In this document: positions 9,039-40,192 of the stretch, piece after piece
How positions within the stretch are numbered: position 1 is the first letter of the stretch
How the letters are laid out: each line of letters begins with the position of its first letter
IMG/VR virus record: IMGVR_UViG_2541047798_000006
Source of the DNA: a virus
Taxonomy: Duplodnaviria > Heunggongvirae > Uroviricota > Caudoviricetes
Reading direction: 5' to 3' (one strand)
DNA: 41,828 bases
Program-made: the position numbers and the translations under genes
Notes under the pieces: generated by a model
Databases searched by the model: none
What the model was told of the DNA's origin: nothing
The model's input: only the letters and a program-made list of their open reading frames with translations

Positions 9039-9367
9039 CAGTTCACCACCTGTTCAAACTCTGCGCTGAACTCAACACGCAACATACTGACCCGCGACGA
9101 CCATTTTGCGCAGGTCACCTTTATCTGCCGCCAGTCATAAGGCGGCGTCCACAGAAAGGCTTTCCAGCCTCCGTGCTCTGCCAGAAACGATTCCAACGCC
9201 GTGGCCTCCCAACGGGGGACAGAAATCGTCACGCTGTACGTTTTCAGGTTGGCATTCAGCCCGGCAGGCGCGCGCTGGGAATAGCCATCACCAAAGCGCA
9301 CCTTCCTGACGGAAGGAGCCGAAGCCACATCCATACCGGGTTTCACTTTCCAGCGGAAGGTTTTCAT
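9038..9367 (-). CDS. M: tail tip protein M
   Basis: 109 aa, lambda M-like. Confidence 0.9.
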   Translation of the reverse strand: MKTFRWKVKPGMDVASAPSVRKVRFGDGYSQRAPAGLNANLKTYSVTISVPRWEATALESFLAEHGGWKAFLWTPPYDWRQIKVTCAKWSSRVSMLRVEFSAEFEQVVN

Positions 9368-11863
9368 CGTCCACCTCCGGAGAACAGACCACCATCACGC
9401 ATCTGCCCGGTCACAACATCCATTGCCGCCTTGCGGGCCATGTCATACACTGCCTTCAGCATCTGTGGACCTGGCAGACCATTCGTGCCGTCGTTATTAA
9501 TCACCACATGGTTATTCTGCTCAAACTTCCCGGACGCCTGCGACCGGCTGTCCGCCAGGCTGCCCGGTGTACCGACATAACCACCGGTGGCATAGCCGCG
9601 CATCAGCCGGTAGAGATTCCCCACGCCAATCCGGCTGGTTGCCTCCTTCGTGAAGACAAATTCACCACGGTGAACAATCCCCGCTGGCTCATATTTGCCG
9701 CCGGTTCCCGTAAATCCCCCTGTCGCAAAATGGAATTTCGCCGCAGCTGCCTGAATGGCTGTACCGCCTGACGCGGATGCGCCGCCACCAACAGCACCGC
9801 CAATGGCGCTGCCGATACTCCCGACAATCCCCACCATTGCCTGCTTAAGCAGAATTTCTGTCATCATGGACAGCACGGATCGGGTGAAGCTGCGCCAGTT
9901 TTGTTCACTGCCGGTCAGCATCGCCGCCATATTCTGTGCAATACCATCAAAGGTCTGCGTGGCTGCACTTTTAACCTGCGACATACTGTCCGTGGCGCTC
10001 TCTTCCCACTCACTCCAGCCTGACTTGAGGCCTGCCATCCAGCTCCCGCGAAGCTGGTCTTCAGCTGCCCAGGTCTTTTTCTGCTCTGACATGACGTTAT
10101 TCAGCGCCAGCGGATTATCGCCATACTGTTCCTTCAGACGCTGTTCCGTGGCGTCCCGCGCTGCCTGCCGGTCAGTCAGCCCCCGGTTTTTCGCATCAAT
10201 GGCTGCCCGTTTTGCCCGTTGTTGCTGTGCGAATTTATCCGCCTGCTGCGCCAGCGCATTCAGGTGCTCCTGATACGTGACCTTATCGCCAAGTGCAGCC
10301 AGCTGGCGTTTGTACTCCAGCGTCTCGTCTTTATGCGCCAGCAGGGATTTCTCCTGTGCGGACAGCTGGCGACGTTGTGCCGCCTCCTCCAGTACCGCGA
10401 ACTGACTTTCTGCCTTCCACAAATCCCGGCGCTGCTGGCTGATTTTCTCATTCGCTGTCTTCCTGACGATCGCCCGCAGACACCTTCACGCCGGACTGTT
10501 TCGGCTTTTTCAGCGTCGCTTCATAATCCTTTTTCGCCGCCGCCATCAGCGTGTTGTAATCTGCCTGCAGGATTTTCCCGTCTTTCAGTGCCTTGTTCAG
10601 TTCTTCCTGACGGGCGGTATATTTCTCCAGCGGCGTCTGCAGCCGTTCGTAAGCCTTCTGCGCCTCTTCGGTATATTTCAGCCGTGACGCTTCGGTATCG
10701 CTCTGCTGCTGCGCATTTTTGTCCTGTTGACTCTGCTGTTCAGCCTTCTTTCGGGCGGCTTCAAGCGCAAGACGGGCCTTTTCACGATCATCCCAGTAAC
10801 GCGCCCGCGCTTCATCGTTAACAAAATAATCATCCTTGCGCAGATTCCAGATGTCGTCCGCTTTCTTAAACGCAGCCTCTGCCTTAATCAGCATCTCCTG
10901 AGCGGTATCAGGACGACCAATATCCAGCACCGCATCCCACATGGATTTGAATGCCCGTGCTGTCCTGTCTGCCCAGGTTTCCAGCGTGCCCATGTTCTCT
11001 TTCAGGCGTCGGGTCTGGTCATCAAACCCTTTCGTTGCGGCCTCGTTCGCCGCCTGCAATGCCCCGGCTTCATCGCCGGAACGCTGCAACTGAGCAACAT
11101 ACGCAATCTGCTCCGCCGTCACGTTATGGAACTGGCGCGCCATCGCCGTCAGCCCCGACGTCGGGTCAGTGGTCAGCTTCCCGAAGGCTTCAGCGACCTT
11201 GTCCACCTCCACACCGGATGCAGAGGAGAAACGCGCCACACTCTGGCTGATGGACGCAATCTGAGCCTCACCGCTTACCCCCGCCTTAACCAGTGCACTG
11301 AGTGACTCGCTGGTCTGGTTAAACGTCAGCCCTGCAGCCTGCCCGGCTCTGGACAGGACCAGCATACGATCTGCCGTCAGTCCCGCCTGATTACCGGAAA
11401 GGACCAGCGTTTTGTTGAAATCGGACAGGGTTGAGTTACCCTGATACCAGGCATACGCCAGCGCACCGGTCGCCACCGCCAGCGAGGTGGCCCCGACCAT
11501 CGGCAGGGTGATCGCACCGGCAAGCCCCCGGAACATGGGGATCATCCCGCCGAAGGAGTCCTTAACCTGACCACCCTGTTGCAGCAGGATCAGCCACGGG
11601 CTTTGCCCGCCTGCAAGCTGCGTGGCCACGTCGGTGAACTGTGCAGGCAGCATACGCATGGCGGCTTTATACTGCCCGACGGAAATCCCCGCTTTCTGTG
11701 CAGCCAGCGCCTGTCGGCTCAGCGACTGTTCAACGACTGCCGCTGTTTTTTTCGCATCACTTTCCGTACCGGAAAAATGACGCCTGACTCTGGCCATCTG
11801 CTCGTCAAATCTGGCCGCATCCAGACTTAAATCAACGACCAGATCGCCTACCGGTTCAGCCAT
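9364..11863 (-). pseudogene. H: tail tape measure protein H, split into two reading frames
   Basis: N-terminal piece 10448..11863 (471 aa, ends TGA at 10448) and C-terminal piece 9364..10422 (352 aa, TTG-initiated in the ORF track) are both lambda-H-like but in different frames; the second frame is open upstream to 10485. Confidence 0.7.
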
Positions 11864-24997: not shown

Positions 24998-25258
24998 TTA
25001 TGGTATACCGCGCCTCTGAACAGGGGCGCGTTTCTGGCAACAGCTCGTCCCCTTCACATAACCCGGCAGCAACATCCAGGAAGACCTGGCTGCTGCCTCA
25101 TAAAACTCCAGCGCGGCACCTTCAACACGGTCCAGCGAGATGTCCAGGTCAAAAATTTCACCGTCAAAGCGTTTTTTGTCCCGTAACGCTAAAGTTACCG
25201 TAACTTTATTCTCAAAATTGCGGATCCCTTTCACAATCAGTTCATAGTTTTGAGTCAT
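24998..25258 (-). CDS. small protein between holin and endolysin (possibly YdfR/DUF1327-like, maybe C-terminally altered)
   Basis: 86 aa MTQNYELIVKGIRNFENKVTVTLALRDKKRFDGEIFDLD...; GGAG SD directly after the S stop; family from memory. Confidence 0.45.
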   Translation of the reverse strand: MTQNYELIVKGIRNFENKVTVTLALRDKKRFDGEIFDLDISLDRVEGAALEFYEAAARSSWMLLPGYVKGTSCCQKRAPVQRRGIP

Positions 25259-25785: not shown

Positions 25786-25989
25786 TCACTCCGGCTCAGT
25801 TGCACCGCTGACCACCACATCACCTTCTGCTGCAATCGCCTGCATCAGGGTATAAGGGGTTATGGCCACCGGACTACCAAACGGCTGCCAGCCCTCTTTC
25901 AGTTTATGTGTCAGCTTTTCCGCAAGATCTGACGGCGGCGCCGCCCTGACAACATCATAGTGTTTAAATGCCATGGTTCTTTCCACCAT
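25786..25989 (-). CDS. small hypothetical protein upstream of lysis cassette (possibly DUF1737-like)
   Basis: 67-aa ORF ...MAFKHYDVVRAAPPSDLAEKLTHKLKEGWQPFGSPVAITPYTLMQAIAAEG... Confidence 0.45.
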   Translation of the reverse strand: MVERTMAFKHYDVVRAAPPSDLAEKLTHKLKEGWQPFGSPVAITPYTLMQAIAAEGDVVVSGATEPE

Positions 25990-26570: not shown

Positions 26571-26604
26571 GGAGTTTACTCACATCTGACAAAATCAATA
26601 TAAA

Positions 26605-26626
26605 CAGCCCCTCCGGAGAGGGGCTG
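26605..26626. terminator. candidate bidirectional terminator hairpin between convergent cargo ORFs
   Basis: cagcccctc-cgga-gaggggctg 9-bp perfect stem. Confidence 0.45.
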
Positions 26627-27017
26627 GAGAGTGGCGCTATGTGCCATTGCATGGTGCCGGGTGCCTCCCGGTGAATTCAGTACCAGCACCTGAATCCGCG
26701 ATTATCCCATATACCTACTCGCTGATTGCCCCACCGCACAGGGGGATTCACCATGCCAGTTTCTTTTAACAAACTCCCCGCAAACCAGACAACAGTCAAC
26801 CGCCTGAATTGTGAAGTATTTAAAAATTTCTCCCGCTAACTGATACCCGGCTAACAGTCTGGCGTTTTCTTTTTCAGCAACGGGAAAGCAACAACCACCA
26901 CACCCGCCACCAGCACACCGTCAGCCAGCACTGACATTATCCGGCTGCTGCAATGCCATTCACAAAAACAGTAAGCAATCACTTTTTACCGTAACAGGTG
27001 ATAATCCAGATATGTAT

Positions 27018-30479: not shown

Positions 30480-30731
30480 TTATTCTTCTGCAAAAGCTGA
30501 AAAGCCTGCTTTTATTCCGATCTCTTTCAGTGCCTGTAATGAAGTGACAAACTCACCTTCGCGCAAGATAAATCCGTCTGTCACTCGACCATCCACAAAA
30601 TTAATTAACGCAGCCCCATTCTTTCGCAAACACATAATGCGGTAATGACTAACAAGATTTCCATTTTCAACGCACACAGCATAGAGGCCATCTTCACAAA
30701 AAATTTTACGCAGTTCTTCGATGTTCATCAT
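30480..30731 (-). CDS. rem: Rem-like small protein
   Basis: 83 aa, placed next to hok as rem is next to hokD in Qin (from memory). Confidence 0.5.
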   Translation of the reverse strand: MMNIEELRKIFCEDGLYAVCVENGNLVSHYRIMCLRKNGAALINFVDGRVTDGFILREGEFVTSLQALKEIGIKAGFSAFAEE

Positions 30732-30946: not shown

Positions 30947-31102
30947 TTACTCCTCAGGTTCGTAAGCTGTGAAGACAGCGACCTCCGTCTGGCCGGTTCG
31001 GATTCGTACCTCGCAGAGGTCTTTCCTCGTTACCAGTGCCGTCACTATGACGGTTAAACAGATGACGATCAGGGCGATTAACATCGCCTTTTGCTGCTTC
31101 AT
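30947..31102 (-). CDS. hok: Hok-family type I toxin (HokD/RelF-like)
   Basis: 51 aa MKQQKAMLIALIVICLTVIVTALVTRKDLCEVRIRTGQTEVAVFTAYEPEE. Confidence 0.85.
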   Translation of the reverse strand: MKQQKAMLIALIVICLTVIVTALVTRKDLCEVRIRTGQTEVAVFTAYEPEE

Positions 31103-31650
31103 AGCCTGCTTCTCCTTGCCTTTCGGCACGTAAGAGGCTAACCTACATGTGTCTAGCATGAAATTGGCCTCAGATTAATGTTAAGCGTCTTGCAGGACGC
31201 GTAATGTTAACTGGGGCTTTTCTCTATCTGCCGTTGGTGTTATGCCCGAGGCAGATAGCCTCAAGCACCCGCAGCCATTCTACTTAACTACCGTTACCTC
31301 GCCAATGTGAAATCAGTCAGAAAGGCGATCCATAAGAACAATAGCAAGACAATAAATCGCCATTACAGCCGTAATAGCCAGCGCACATTTGAGAACCAGC
31401 ACCACAACCTCCTGTATTGGACGTACACCAGTCCTGATGAATATGAGGCTGTCTCGTCAGTGATTCAATACAACTATTGGGTATAGTTTCTCTGATTTTT
31501 TCTGTGGAAATGGGGCTCAACCACTAGTCATTTAATACGCAAAGTCCGATACAAGCTAACCTTCTAGTCCGCTTTGAGCGAAAAGCGGACGTTGGAAGTT
31601 TAAAACTCGCGAACTACTCAGCGTCCATTGATGCGTATTGTGTAACGTGA

Positions 31651-35342: not shown

Positions 35343-35750
35343 ATGGATACAAGAACCCTAGGCCAGCGAGTTCTGGCGCGACGAAAAGAATTACGCTTAA
35401 CACAACGAGAAGCTGCGCGCCTCGCTGGAGTTGCTCACGTCACAATTTCACAATGGGAAAGAGACGAAACCCAGCCAGTCGGAAAACGATTGTTTGCTTT
35501 AGCGGATGCTCTGAAGTGCTCACCTACATGGCTAATGTTTGGTGATGAAGACAAGGCACCAGTGCCTGCACAAGAACTTCATGTGGAAACAGAGCTAACT
35601 CCCAACCACAAAGAATTGATCGAATTATTCGATGCTCTTCCATCTTCCGAGCAGGAAGCCTTGCTGTCTGAAATGCGCGCAAGAGTAGAAAACTTCAACA
35701 AACTCTTCGAAGAAATGCTTAAAGCGCGTAAAAATAAATCAATAAAATAA
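35343..35750 (+). CDS. prophage repressor, DicA-like (HTH-XRE, no S24 peptidase domain)
   Basis: 135 aa ...LTQREAARLAGVAHVTISQWERDETQPVGKRLFALADALKCSPTWLMFGDED...MRARVENFNKLFEEMLKAR. Confidence 0.8.
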   Translation: MDTRTLGQRVLARRKELRLTQREAARLAGVAHVTISQWERDETQPVGKRLFALADALKCSPTWLMFGDEDKAPVPAQELHVETELTPNHKELIELFDALPSSEQEALLSEMRARVENFNKLFEEMLKARKNKSIK

Positions 35751-35785
35751 CATTCTTTTCAAGTGATTAGTTGCGCCCACTCTTT

Positions 35786-35805
35786 TTGTTAGACCAACCT
35801 AACAA
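35786..35805. promoter_or_regulatory. second operator-like palindrome downstream of repressor gene
   Basis: TTGTTAG-accaac-CTAACAA; a third partial copy at about 35823-35838. Confidence 0.4.
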
Positions 35806-35918
35806 AAAACACTTGCCTCTCATGTTAGGTTATTCTAAATTACTTTCCATCAAGACACCGCACGGTGTTCTCAGCAAACAGTTCCGCTACCCCGGCGTTA
35901 AGGGGAAATGAGGTCAGC

Positions 35919-36074
35919 ATGGATACTATCGATCTTGGCAACAACGAATCTCTGGTATGCGGCGTGTTTCCCAACCAAGACGGCACGTTCACCGCGATGA
36001 CGTATACCAAAAGCAAAACGTTTAAAACCGAAGCTGGCGCGCATCGCTGGCTGGAAAGAAATTCAGGTGAGTGA
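35919..36074 (+). CDS. YdfA-like small protein
   Basis: 51 aa MDTIDLGNNESLVCGVFPNQDGTFTAMTYTKSKTFKTEAGAHRWLERNSGE. Confidence 0.6.
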   Translation: MDTIDLGNNESLVCGVFPNQDGTFTAMTYTKSKTFKTEAGAHRWLERNSGE

Positions 36075-36075
36075 T

Positions 36076-36204
36076 ATGGATTTCGACGCAATCATGGAAA
36101 AGGCTTACGAAGAATACTTCGAAGGCCTTGCCGAAGGCGAAGAAGCTCTCAGCTTCAGCGAATTTAAACAGGCGCTTTCCAGTTCGGCAAAAGCTAACAA
36201 CTGA
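36076..36204 (+). CDS. YdfB-like small protein (42 aa, not in ORF track)
   Basis: MDFDAIMEKAYEEYFEGLAEGEEALSFSEFKQALSSSAKANN read directly after the ydfA-like stop. Confidence 0.5.
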   Translation: MDFDAIMEKAYEEYFEGLAEGEEALSFSEFKQALSSSAKANN

Positions 36205-36358: not shown

Positions 36359-36829
36359 TTATGTGCAAAACACAGTATGGATTTTCGTCGGGAAGGAGTT
36401 GCCCTTCCATGGGGAGCAAAATATTAGCAGATACCAGTTTTTTATATCAGAATCATTGCGTACAGCATGGATCACAGGATAGTTCCTCGATAATGCCGTA
36501 ATAAGAATTTTTTTCTGACCCGCAGTCAAGGAATCGATAACTGCATTGATATGACTGATTGTTTTTTGTTCTCTTGTATTGTTCCGGTGACTTCGCCAGA
36601 CCTTACGAAGAAATAAAGCTAAACGTTGGAGATTTATAGCCAGCACAAAAGAAAAGGCAAAAACGAATACCGGGTAAATATAAGGAATGCTGATTTTGTC
36701 TTGAACATACTCCGGTACAGAATCAGGCATAAAGAGCAATATCAAAACAAAGATAATAAGCATATACATAAGGCGCTCTAAGGGTTCGTTACTGAATAAC
36801 TTGCTCAACAAGCCGAATACATCAGGCAT
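36359..36829 (-). CDS. hypothetical membrane protein, antisense to the early-left operon
   Basis: 156-aa ORF, two N-terminal hydrophobic segments, AT-rich, GAGAG SD-like sequence upstream. Confidence 0.35.
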   Translation of the reverse strand: MPDVFGLLSKLFSNEPLERLMYMLIIFVLILLFMPDSVPEYVQDKISIPYIYPVFVFAFSFVLAINLQRLALFLRKVWRSHRNNTREQKTISHINAVIDSLTAGQKKILITALSRNYPVIHAVRNDSDIKNWYLLIFCSPWKGNSFPTKIHTVFCT

Positions 36830-37140
36830 ATTAATAACTCTCTACTGTAAGGGTATTAAAATGCTATCACAGACTCTCGCTGTAGGGGTATAGCCGAGAC
36901 CACCGAGCCTGAAGTGGTAAAAAGACAGGCACACAACACGAAAGCGCACGGCGAGGCTGTTAGTTCATAAATGGTCTGTCGTTAAATTTTCGTCGACCGT
37001 GCGCTTCCGGTTGTGGCAATCCGCGAAATGGCGCGGCGGTAAGTATGGCGGGGTTATTCCTTCCCCGTTGAGGACACCGGGTTGTCAGGTTGACCATACG
37101 CTTAAGTGACAACCCCGCTGCAGCGCCCTCTGTTATCAAT

Positions 37141-37198
37141 TTTCTGGTGACGTTTGGCGGTATCAGTTTTACTCCGTGACTGCTCTGCCGCCCTTTTT
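37141..37198 (+). ncRNA. dicF: DicF sRNA (ftsZ-targeting)
   Basis: tttctggtgacgtttggcggtatcagttttactccgtgactgctctgccgccctttttaa matches the DicF sequence from memory. Confidence 0.8.
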
Positions 37199-37372
37199 AA
37201 AGTGAATTTTGTGATGCGGTGAATGCGGCTGAGCGCACGCGGAACAGTTAAAACCGAAAACTGTGTTATGGGTGGATTCTCTGTATCCGGCGTTAATTGT
37301 TAACTGGTTAACGTCACCTGGAGGCACCAGGCACCGCATCAACAAAGTTCATTTGTAAAAATGGAGATAATT

Positions 37373-37594
37373 ATGATTGCTCATCACTTCGGAACTGATG
37401 AGATTCCTCGTCAGTGCGTGACTCCCGGTGATTATGTTATTCATAAAGGAAGAACATATATTGCTTCGGTAAACAACATTAAAAAACAACGGCTCTATAT
37501 TCGTGATTTTTCCACACAACACTGTATTAAGGAAACCATGATTAAAGTCTTCCTTGGTCGTGATGGTTTACCTGTAAAAGCAGAGTCATGGTGA
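37373..37594 (+). CDS. hypothetical small protein in the dicB position
   Basis: 73 aa from the ATG at 37373 (GGAGA SD); not similar to DicB as remembered. Confidence 0.5.
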
Positions 37595-37717
37595 GCAGTA
37601 ATAAAATAACTGCCACAATACGACATTCAGCTTAATGAATACATCAGATTTGATTCTTATATGCCAGCAATGGCAGGGATTTGTTCACCCTTAAATCTGT
37701 AATGAGGTTAAAACAAA

Positions 37718-40192
37718 ATGAGTAAAGTCTTTATTTGCGCCGCCATTCCTGACGAACAGGCAATTAAGGAAGAAGGTGCAGTTGCTGTAGCCACTGCCAT
37801 CGAAGCTGGTGACGAACGCCGCGCCCGAGCCAAATTTACCTGGCAATTCCTGGAGCAATATCCGGCTGCTCAGGACTGTGCTTATAAATTTCTTGTCTGC
37901 GAGGATAAACCCGGCATGGCCCGCCCTGCCCTTGATTCCTGGGATACCGAATATATGCAGGAAAACCGCTGGGATGAGGGATCGTCTTCCTTTGTCCCGG
38001 TCGAACCAGAGCCGAATACAGAAATTGTTAACTTTAATCAGTTATCCGACGACAAACAGGCCGCTGTTCTCGTTAAGTTTGGCGCACATGAAAACGTCAC
38101 CGTGGATATGGTCATCAACGCAAGCGGGCTTCTTGGCGATGACGACATGATGACCTTTGACGGACACCTCGCAGAGGCAATTATCCGGACTAAAGAAATT
38201 AACGCCATGTATCCGGAACGTCAGATTGAATACATCAACGATGCCAGACGTGATTTAAAACCAACCGCCAAATGGCCCGACGTTCAGGCATATTTTCTCG
38301 ACCGTAAAAAACGCATGGAAAAGGAGCGCAAAGAAGGTGGTGCATATGCTTCTGTTGTTGATCTTGCCCGTGCCAGCGTCAACCGGCAGAACACTGAAAA
38401 CTCAGTAGCAAAAATCAACCCTGTCACTACTGCCATTCGTCGCGAATACAAGCAGACATGGAAAACACTGGATGATGAACTGGCCTATGCTCTGTGGCCT
38501 GGGGACATTGATGCCGGAAACATTGACGGCAGCATCCATCGCTGGGCAAAAAATGAAGTTATCGACAACGACCGCGAAGACTGGAAGCGTATCTCGGCAT
38601 CAATGCGCAAACAGCCTGATGCCCTTCGCTACGACCGCCAGACTATTTTTGGCCTTGTCCGTGAACGTCCGATCGACATTCACAAAGACCCTGTGGCACT
38701 GAACAAATACATTACTGAATACCTGACTACAAAGGGCGTGTTTGAAGATGAAGGAAGAAATCAGAGCGCAACTGATACTCTCTCGTCGCCAGTACCAGAA
38801 ACTGATGCAGTGGAAACGGCAATTCCGGACAACGAAAAAACCGAATGCAAAGTGGAAATCGAACCATCTGTAGAGCGTGAGGGGCCGTTCTACTTCCTCT
38901 TCACCGACAAGGATGGCGAAAAATACGGTCGCGCAAACAAACTTTCTGGTCTGGATAAGGCACTGGCTGCCGGGGCTACTGAAATCACGAAAGAAGAATA
39001 TTTCGCCCGCAAAAACGGTACATACTCAGGTTCACAACAAAATACTGGTGCATCTGACACGACCGCACAACCAGAGCCGGTAAAAGTTACCGCTGACGAA
39101 GTAAACAAAATTATGCAGGCAGCCAATATCAGCCAGCCTGACGCCAATCAGCTGCTTGCAGTATCACGTGGTGAATTTGTTGCAGGGATTAGCGACCCGA
39201 ACGATCCGAAATGGGTGAAGGGGATTGAAACCCGCGATTCTGTGAACCAGAACCAGCAAGAAACGGAACAGAACGACCAGAAAGCGGAACAAAACAGCCC
39301 AAATGCGTTACAAAACGAGCCAGAAACGAAACAACCTGAGCCAGTAGCGCAACAGGAAGCGGAAAAAGTCTGCACCGCCTGTGGTCAGACCGGCGGCGGC
39401 AACTGCCCTGATTGTGGTGCGGTGATGGGCGACGCAACATACCAGGAAACATTCGATGAAGAGAATCAGGCTGAAGTTCAGGAAAATGATCCGGAGGAAA
39501 TGGAAGGCGCTGAACATCCACACAAGGAGAATGCTGGCAGCGCTCAGGACCACGCCAGCGATAATGAAACTGGCGAGACGGCAGATTCCTTAATTGCGGT
39601 GAACGGTCATCACGTTATCACATCCACCAGCAGAGTGTGGCACCATCTGATGATCGACCTTGAAACGATGGGAACAAATCCTGATGCGCCAATCAACTCT
39701 ATTGGCGGTAAATTCTTTGATCCCGAAACCGGAGAGATGGGGCCGGAATTTAGCAAGACCATCGATCTGGATACTGCTGGCGGAGTCATTGATCGTGACG
39801 TCATTAAATGGTGGCTTAAGCAATCACGCGAGGCGCAATCTGCCATTCTGACCGATGAAATCCCGTTAGATGATGCACTACTGCAATTGCGGGAATTTAT
39901 CGACGAAAACTCCGGTGAATTTTTTGTTCAGGTCTGGGGAAATGGAGCCAACTTCGACAACGTGATTTTACGCCGTTCATACGAACGGCAGGGGATCCCC
40001 TGCCCGTGGCGTTATTGCAACGATCGCGATGTGCGCACAATCGTTGAGCTGGGAAAAACCCTGAACTTCGATGCCAGAACGGATATTCCATTCGACGGTG
40101 AGCGCCACAATGCACTTGATGACGCCCGTTACCAGGCAAAATACGTTTCAGCTATCTGGCAAAAACTGATCCCGAGTCAGGCTGATTTTTAA
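37718..40192 (+). CDS. large early-region protein with C-terminal DEDDh (DnaQ-like) 3'-5' exonuclease domain
   Basis: 824 aa; motifs MIDLETMG, WGNGANFDNVILR, HNALDDARYQ; central CTACGQTGGGNCPDCG zinc ribbon; acidic/Gln-rich linker. Confidence 0.7.
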   Translation: MSKVFICAAIPDEQAIKEEGAVAVATAIEAGDERRARAKFTWQFLEQYPAAQDCAYKFLVCEDKPGMARPALDSWDTEYMQENRWDEGSSSFVPVEPEPNTEIVNFNQLSDDKQAAVLVKFGAHENVTVDMVINASGLLGDDDMMTFDGHLAEAIIRTKEINAMYPERQIEYINDARRDLKPTAKWPDVQAYFLDRKKRMEKERKEGGAYASVVDLARASVNRQNTENSVAKINPVTTAIRREYKQTWKTLDDELAYALWPGDIDAGNIDGSIHRWAKNEVIDNDREDWKRISASMRKQPDALRYDRQTIFGLVRERPIDIHKDPVALNKYITEYLTTKGVFEDEGRNQSATDTLSSPVPETDAVETAIPDNEKTECKVEIEPSVEREGPFYFLFTDKDGEKYGRANKLSGLDKALAAGATEITKEEYFARKNGTYSGSQQNTGASDTTAQPEPVKVTADEVNKIMQAANISQPDANQLLAVSRGEFVAGISDPNDPKWVKGIETRDSVNQNQQETEQNDQKAEQNSPNALQNEPETKQPEPVAQQEAEKVCTACGQTGGGNCPDCGAVMGDATYQETFDEENQAEVQENDPEEMEGAEHPHKENAGSAQDHASDNETGETADSLIAVNGHHVITSTSRVWHHLMIDLETMGTNPDAPINSIGGKFFDPETGEMGPEFSKTIDLDTAGGVIDRDVIKWWLKQSREAQSAILTDEIPLDDALLQLREFIDENSGEFFVQVWGNGANFDNVILRRSYERQGIPCPWRYCNDRDVRTIVELGKTLNFDARTDIPFDGERHNALDDARYQAKYVSAIWQKLIPSQADF

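Follow-up and report, generated by a model that had tools for sequence, protein, structure and literature searches.

A kilR-family gene in the dicB position behind DicF in a Qin-site lambdoid prophage

The closest described relatives of the locus analyzed here are the division inhibitors KilR and DicB, encoded by the Rac and Qin prophages of Escherichia coli K-12, respectively, and the Kil protein of phage lambda. KilR (b1352, 73 aa) is an experimentally characterized inhibitor of FtsZ and, at a higher dose, of MreB (PMC12482147, PMC5793797). A low dose leads to filamentation and Z-ring loss and a high dose to cell rounding and MreB mislocalization, and deletion analysis indicated that the last 12 residues are essential for toxicity (PMC12482147); the introduction of the same article states that the toxicity is fully suppressed by raised FtsZ levels. 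In K-12, kilR is silenced by Rho/NusG and is freed when OxyS represses nusG (PMC5793797, PMC10798246). DicB (62 aa), encoded after DicF and a structured leader in the DicA-controlled operon of Qin, has the same broad outcome as KilR in the literature, namely blocked Z-ring function, but is described in PMC11879457 as acting through MinC and ZipA, whereas KilR toxicity is relieved by extra FtsZ and involves perturbation of MreB. Lambda Kil (47 aa), a small FtsZ inhibitor of the PL operon, requires ZipA, in contrast to KilR, which stays toxic even in ftsA* delta-zipA cells (PMC12482147).

The window, that is, the whole 41,828-nucleotide stretch of viral DNA analyzed (IMG/VR record IMGVR_UViG_2541047798_000006), differs by one base from positions 2447151-2488978 of NZ_CP082774.1 (E. 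coli O16:H6 CU37RT-2), and a megablast search revealed identical DNA in several complete E. coli strains, in which RefSeq annotates kil. The identical record, as annotated by RefSeq, shows a near-complete lambdoid prophage adjoining rspB/rspA, the Qin site of K-12. Its minus strand bears the genes for tail, head, and lysis together with Q, tRNAs, hokD/sok, rem, O, a gene of the YdaT family, and a regulator of the Cro type. In this record, the tape-measure gene has an annotated frameshift (window 9364..11863, minus strand), and two small late genes, DUF1327 and DUF1737, are annotated as partial (25079..25258 and 25789..25974, both minus strand); for this reason, the prophage is perhaps defective, or the frameshift is a sequencing error. 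The plus strand carries, in this order, a dicA-type repressor gene, ydfA, ydfB, (sieB in antisense), DicF, kil, an 824-aa exonuclease gene, xis, and int (Table 1).

Table 1. Features of the prophage that bear on the kil locus (positions in the window)
Feature	Position	Strand	Evidence or remark
Strong STnc100 copy, late region	26596..26785	-	Rfam, 130.5 bits
rem antirepressor gene	30480..30731		Present as in Qin
hokD/sok type I toxin-antitoxin	31097..31270 and 30947..31102	-	Rfam sok, 118 bits; as in Qin
DicA-type repressor	35343..35750	+	NCBIfam NF007257 DicA, 224.7 bits (cutoff 101)
ydfA (DUF1391) and ydfB	35919..36204	+	Pfam PF07151, RefSeq; first genes of dicBp-type operon
sieB superinfection-exclusion gene	36359..36829	-	Pfam PF14163, E 2.6e-13; RefSeq
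DicF sRNA with intrinsic terminator hairpin	37142..37193	+	Rfam RF00039
Structured leader RNA, diverged STnc100 family	37194..37358	+	Between DicF and kil
PGAP "DicB pseudogene" (partial "cell division inhibition protein DicB")	37263..37346	+	Really leader
kil cassette, 279 bp, without Qin homology	37354..37632	+	blastn against Qin
Shine-Dalgarno GGAG	37363..37366	+	Read from the sequence; 6 nt 5' of ATG 37373
kil, kilR-family gene, 73 aa	37373..37594	+	NF008465, phrog_294, identity to K-12 KilR, RefSeq "kil"
824-aa exonuclease, next gene of the operon	37718..40192	+	phrog_2082 over full length; homology to Qin ydfE

The DicA homologue of the early operon shares 57% identity with K-12 DicA. 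The promoter region can be aligned to the intergenic stretch between dicA and ydfA of Qin, including the reported dicBp site, while the operator sequences differ. The DicA-type repressor is presumed to control the operon promoter between its own gene and ydfA, and the differing operator, together with the 57% identity of the repressor, suggests an immunity specificity other than that of Qin. The operator region (35751..35930) holds a perfect palindrome, TTGTTAG-N7-CTAACAA. The ydfA/ydfB region is 84% identical to Qin at the nucleotide level, and sieB lies antisense upstream of DicF, an arrangement as in Rac and lambda. The 824-aa exonuclease behind kil is the intact counterpart of the K-12 Qin ydfE pseudogene, which is disrupted by IS2; its middle part is similar to RecE (exonuclease VIII), and residues 642-814 match the Rv2179c-like 3'-5' exoribonuclease domain (Pfam PF16473, E 2e-63).

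The open reading frame between the leader and this exonuclease gene had been singled out, in the original prediction, as an unrelated small protein with a good ribosome-binding site in the dicB position, about 175 nt downstream of DicF. Direct reading of the sequence confirmed the Shine-Dalgarno motif in front of the 73-aa frame, and the segment containing it is identical to that of Rac kilR in the alignment. An alternative in-frame ATG at 37361 (77 aa) was rejected, as it lacks a Shine-Dalgarno motif and the homologues and the NCBIfam model all begin MIAHHF. The gap between the DicF end and the ATG measured 179 nt, which matches the 174 nt between dicF and dicB in K-12 Qin, so that the frame indeed occupies the dicB position. 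The product ends in VKAESW. A comparison with K-12 kilR gave a dN of 0.11, a dS of 0.72, and a dN/dS of 0.155, which indicates that the frame is under purifying selection; this ratio and the existence of 52 homologous protein clusters identify it as a real gene rather than a chance frame.

The kil protein belongs to the KilR family. It scored 140 bits against the NCBIfam model NF008465, "FtsZ inhibitor protein", whose curated cutoff is 92 bits, with residues 1-73 on model positions 1-73, and it matched phrog_294, "Kil protein for bacterial septation inhibition", with an E value of 8e-33. KilR of K-12 Rac, which has the same length and belongs to the same NCBIfam family, is identical at 59 of 73 residues (81%; 92% positives, ungapped, E 2e-47). 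Residues 1-22 and 57-73, and with them the C-terminal 12 residues, are identical between the two proteins, and the 14 substitutions cluster in the beta core (residues 23-55); L66, P67, and W73 do not vary among the 19 family members compared. When 5.8 billion proteins were searched, only 52 homologous clusters were returned, all at least 64% identical and all tagged PF27398; their sources call them KilR or "FtsZ", and they come from Escherichia, Shigella, Salmonella, or Raoultella only. The protein is thus conserved. A local Pfam-A search with the kil protein gave no match, an outcome explained by an older library rather than by an orphan protein, because the precomputed tags of the homologues carry PF27398. 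RefSeq lists the gene as WP_000560212.1 with the note "Rac prophage Kil protein". In RefSeq, the product is called "cell division protein FtsZ", a name that has spread over many records and is a misnomer for an FtsZ inhibitor.

Solved structures of relatives were looked for and none was found. The best model of the kil protein (pLDDT 87) has six strands over residues 7-61 and flexible ends; of the five AlphaFold models, this was the single confident one, and four had a pLDDT of 51-67. The C-terminal tail has low confidence in the best model, consistent with flexibility, and a beta core with short flexible termini fits the published AF3 description of KilR (PMC12482147).

The neighborhood of kil also has much in common with that of Rac kilR, including the antisense sieB upstream, a DicF-type sRNA, a structured leader, the identical Shine-Dalgarno region, and recombination/exonuclease genes downstream. 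The two loci differ in several respects: a canonical DicF (76.7 bits) precedes kil in the window, whereas Rac has kilS, which is diverged and scores 39.1 bits with the DicF model; neither ydaE nor racC follows kil, unlike in Rac; and the window prophage lies at the Qin site (rspB side) and has a DicA-type repressor, whereas Rac lies at ttcA and has RacR. The suggestion that the frame may encode an alternative division inhibitor is supported, as the protein falls in a family whose K-12 member is such an inhibitor. The idea of a new factor is not sustained: kil was already known, named, and annotated, and it lies in a mosaic Qin-site prophage.

The RNA elements in front of kil were compared with those of Qin and Rac. 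DicF in the window covers model positions 1-52 of 52 in RF00039 (gathering score, 48). Rac kilS (b4833; 6906..7003 of L004, minus strand) also spans the full DicF model, with an E value of 4e-7 and a score under the same gathering score; it looks like a diverged DicF paralogue in the same position relative to kilR. A literature search for kilS found no paper. The leader between the sRNA and the protein gene is common to Qin (before dicB), Rac (before kilR), and the window, as revealed by a three-way alignment. It matched Rfam RF02076 (STnc100) over 37195..37380 at 39.2 bits (E 7e-7), under the gathering score of 47, and folds much better than shuffled sequence (minimum free energy z-score, -4.8). 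The consensus fold of 19 diverse copies is a conserved multi-hairpin structure with 44 pairs, of which 11 have compensatory changes, and its closing helix of about 21 bp ends just 5' of the Shine-Dalgarno motif. The leader may act as a target of RNase III or may mask the ribosome-binding site. A 2026 preprint ties STnc100 to PasD and makes no mention of DicF, dicB, or kilR. Scanning for consensus promoters and terminators gave nothing above chance near kil, and no promoter-like site was seen on the plus strand between DicF and kil, a result that is weakly consistent with expression of kil from the operon.

Part of this leader is annotated by PGAP as a DicB pseudogene. We rejected a dicB remnant at this place because Rac has the same leader, because the leader lengths (170-196 nt) vary by non-multiples of 3, and because the annotated stretch sits inside the conserved base-paired structure. 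In Qin, the leader read from a GTG upstream happens to continue, without a change of frame, into dicB, and this continuity explains why N-terminally extended DicB models align to the leader.

The exchange of the dicB slot was delineated by comparison with both K-12 prophages. Against Qin, blastn gave 95.2% identity over 36920-37353 (DicF and leader), no match over 37354-37632, and 76.9% identity over 37633-38489, running into the ydfE pseudogene. Since Qin homology flanks the 279-bp kil cassette on both sides, this cassette replaces dicB and ydfD, which occupy 402 bp in Qin. Against Rac, window positions 37188-37609, spanning the sRNA terminator, the leader, and kilR, were 82% identical, and the three-way alignment placed the switch from Qin-like to Rac-like sequence within the last ~25 nt of the leader, in its 3' arm (about 37330-37353).

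The distribution of the locus and of the occupants of the slot was surveyed. Window positions 37100-37720, which run from DicF through the leader and kil into the exonuclease gene, were at least 80% covered in 111 of 5,426 complete E. coli genomes. A viral contig collection probed with the leader hairpin GTCACCTGGAGGCACCAG yielded at least 120 loci (L006-L125). Among the matches listed, the first open reading frame behind the leader was of the DicB type in 81 of the 120 loci and of the KilR type in 21, with a Rha-family regulator in 7, a 94-aa YdaE-like zinc protein in 4, and a 77-aa predicted membrane protein (MEFLLSDFRYRWLWKK...) in 1; the remaining 6 were not callable or lay on a truncated contig. 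The KilR-type loci among the matches listed mostly follow a kilS-type sRNA, two of them (L044 and L103) encode a KilR identical to the protein of the window, and one locus combines a kilS-type sRNA with DicB. All four combinations of sRNA and protein are present in these contigs. An example of a locus with neither DicB nor KilR behind the leader is L090:7462-7627 (minus strand), and such other occupants are candidates for other host-takeover functions. From the occupants of the viral loci listed, we conclude that the slot is a recombination hot spot with interchangeable cargo; among these matches, DicF with KilR belongs to the less frequent combinations but is not remarkable.

Several alternative explanations of the frame were weighed against a functional KilR orthologue. 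Its position behind DicF (179 nt, compared with 174 nt in Qin), the same leader in front, and its place as the first open reading frame downstream of DicF in an operon with a DicA-type repressor, as for DicB, could be taken to mean a homologue of DicB that has diverged strongly, or a functional analogue acting via MinC and ZipA. The slot after DicF alone, however, does not define the DicB family. The kil protein gave no BLASTP alignment at E<=100 to the K-12 DicB sequence (62 aa, taken from NC_000913), in line with the original impression that the two do not resemble each other, and no DicB family match in the Pfam search; it belongs instead to another family, as its 81% identity to K-12 KilR indicates. 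Work by Conter et al. in 1996 reportedly found KilR to act independently of MinCD. The full suppression of KilR toxicity by extra FtsZ (introduction of PMC12482147) also argues against a DicB-like mode of action, and a DicB relationship, which is already refuted at the sequence level, retains next to no credibility. Likewise, the kil protein gave no BLASTP alignment at E<=100 to lambda Kil, in agreement with the literature, although both genes map to a comparable place, with sieB/N on one side and the recombination genes on the other.

A chance open frame or an unexpressed, decayed remnant would be conceivable downstream of the intrinsic terminator of DicF, in a prophage with some pseudogenes, including the frameshifted tape-measure gene. 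Such a frame could hardly be expected to remain intact at full length with a canonical Shine-Dalgarno motif, a dN/dS of 0.155, and a full-length family-model match, nor the 621-nt locus to be at least 80% covered in 111 complete E. coli genomes, and we consider this explanation practically negligible. A somewhat less remote, but still very improbable, explanation is that the gene is a KilR homologue by descent with a diverged function, for example, one that has lost FtsZ inhibition or acts mainly on MreB or another host target, leaving DicF alone to block division. The 14 of 73 substitutions concentrated in residues 23-55 and the dependence of the two separable KilR activities on small sequence features (PMC12482147) would allow for it, whereas the strong purifying selection, the identity of the essential C-terminal tail and of the first 22 residues to K-12 KilR, and an NF008465 score well over the curated cutoff speak for a retained function. 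With the substitutions clustering in the beta core, the potency or target balance of the window protein could nevertheless differ, and its activity against FtsZ and MreB is expected by analogy with the K-12 work.

Very probably, then, the locus carries a functional KilR orthologue within a lambdoid prophage at the Qin site, in whose early-left operon DicF and kil stand together as the result of a cassette swap. The assignment to the KilR family, the purifying selection on the gene, the order of the genes, and the breakpoints of the mosaic are observed directly on this DNA. The Qin operon logic (PMC10448788) is, by homology, the best model for the expression of kil, and, as in K-12, DicA/Rem control and co-transcription of kil with DicF would be expected. 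In the stable lysogen, the DicA-type repressor would keep the operon promoter off. Derepression, for example, by prophage induction or by the prophage's own Rem antirepressor, would then give one transcript with two products: DicF, which would be processed out of the transcript to block ftsZ translation, and Kil, predicted to be a small beta-barrel with a flexible C-terminal tail, which would disrupt Z-rings and, at a higher dose, MreB localization. Through the action of both, cell division would stop. Relative to Qin, kil has taken the place of dicB and ydfD as the protein half of this two-part inhibitor, very probably via recombination in the common leader sequence. One point against this scheme is that the intrinsic terminator of DicF precedes kil, which bears on how much transcription reaches kil; another is the Rho/NusG silencing of kilR in Rac. 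Regulation by Rem or by stress is an extrapolation, because the DicA homologue is only 57% identical and the operator differs.

A broader and rather doubtful possibility is that the DicF-type sRNA, the STnc100-like leader, and a small protein form a conserved, exchangeable host-takeover cassette, in which the leader serves both as the recombination joint and as RNA-level control. If this were true, the leader would control the toxic protein behind it by processing or by occlusion of the Shine-Dalgarno motif; DicF with KilR and the 94-aa and 77-aa occupants would be selected alternatives and no accidents of mosaicism; and some occupants could be new division or shape inhibitors.

As a discovery, the kil gene itself carries little weight, being a named and experimentally studied prophage toxin already annotated on identical DNA. 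The comparison explains two annotation problems, as the PGAP "DicB pseudogene" is leader RNA and "cell division protein FtsZ" is a misnomer, and the variant, at 81% identity to K-12 KilR, supplies naturally occurring core substitutions of use for structure-function studies of KilR. In place of the textbook pairs, DicF with DicB in Qin and kilS with KilR in Rac, the ftsZ-silencing DicF is here paired with the FtsZ- and MreB-inhibiting KilR. The window thus illustrates how the protein half of a division-blocking module is exchanged at a common leader RNA.
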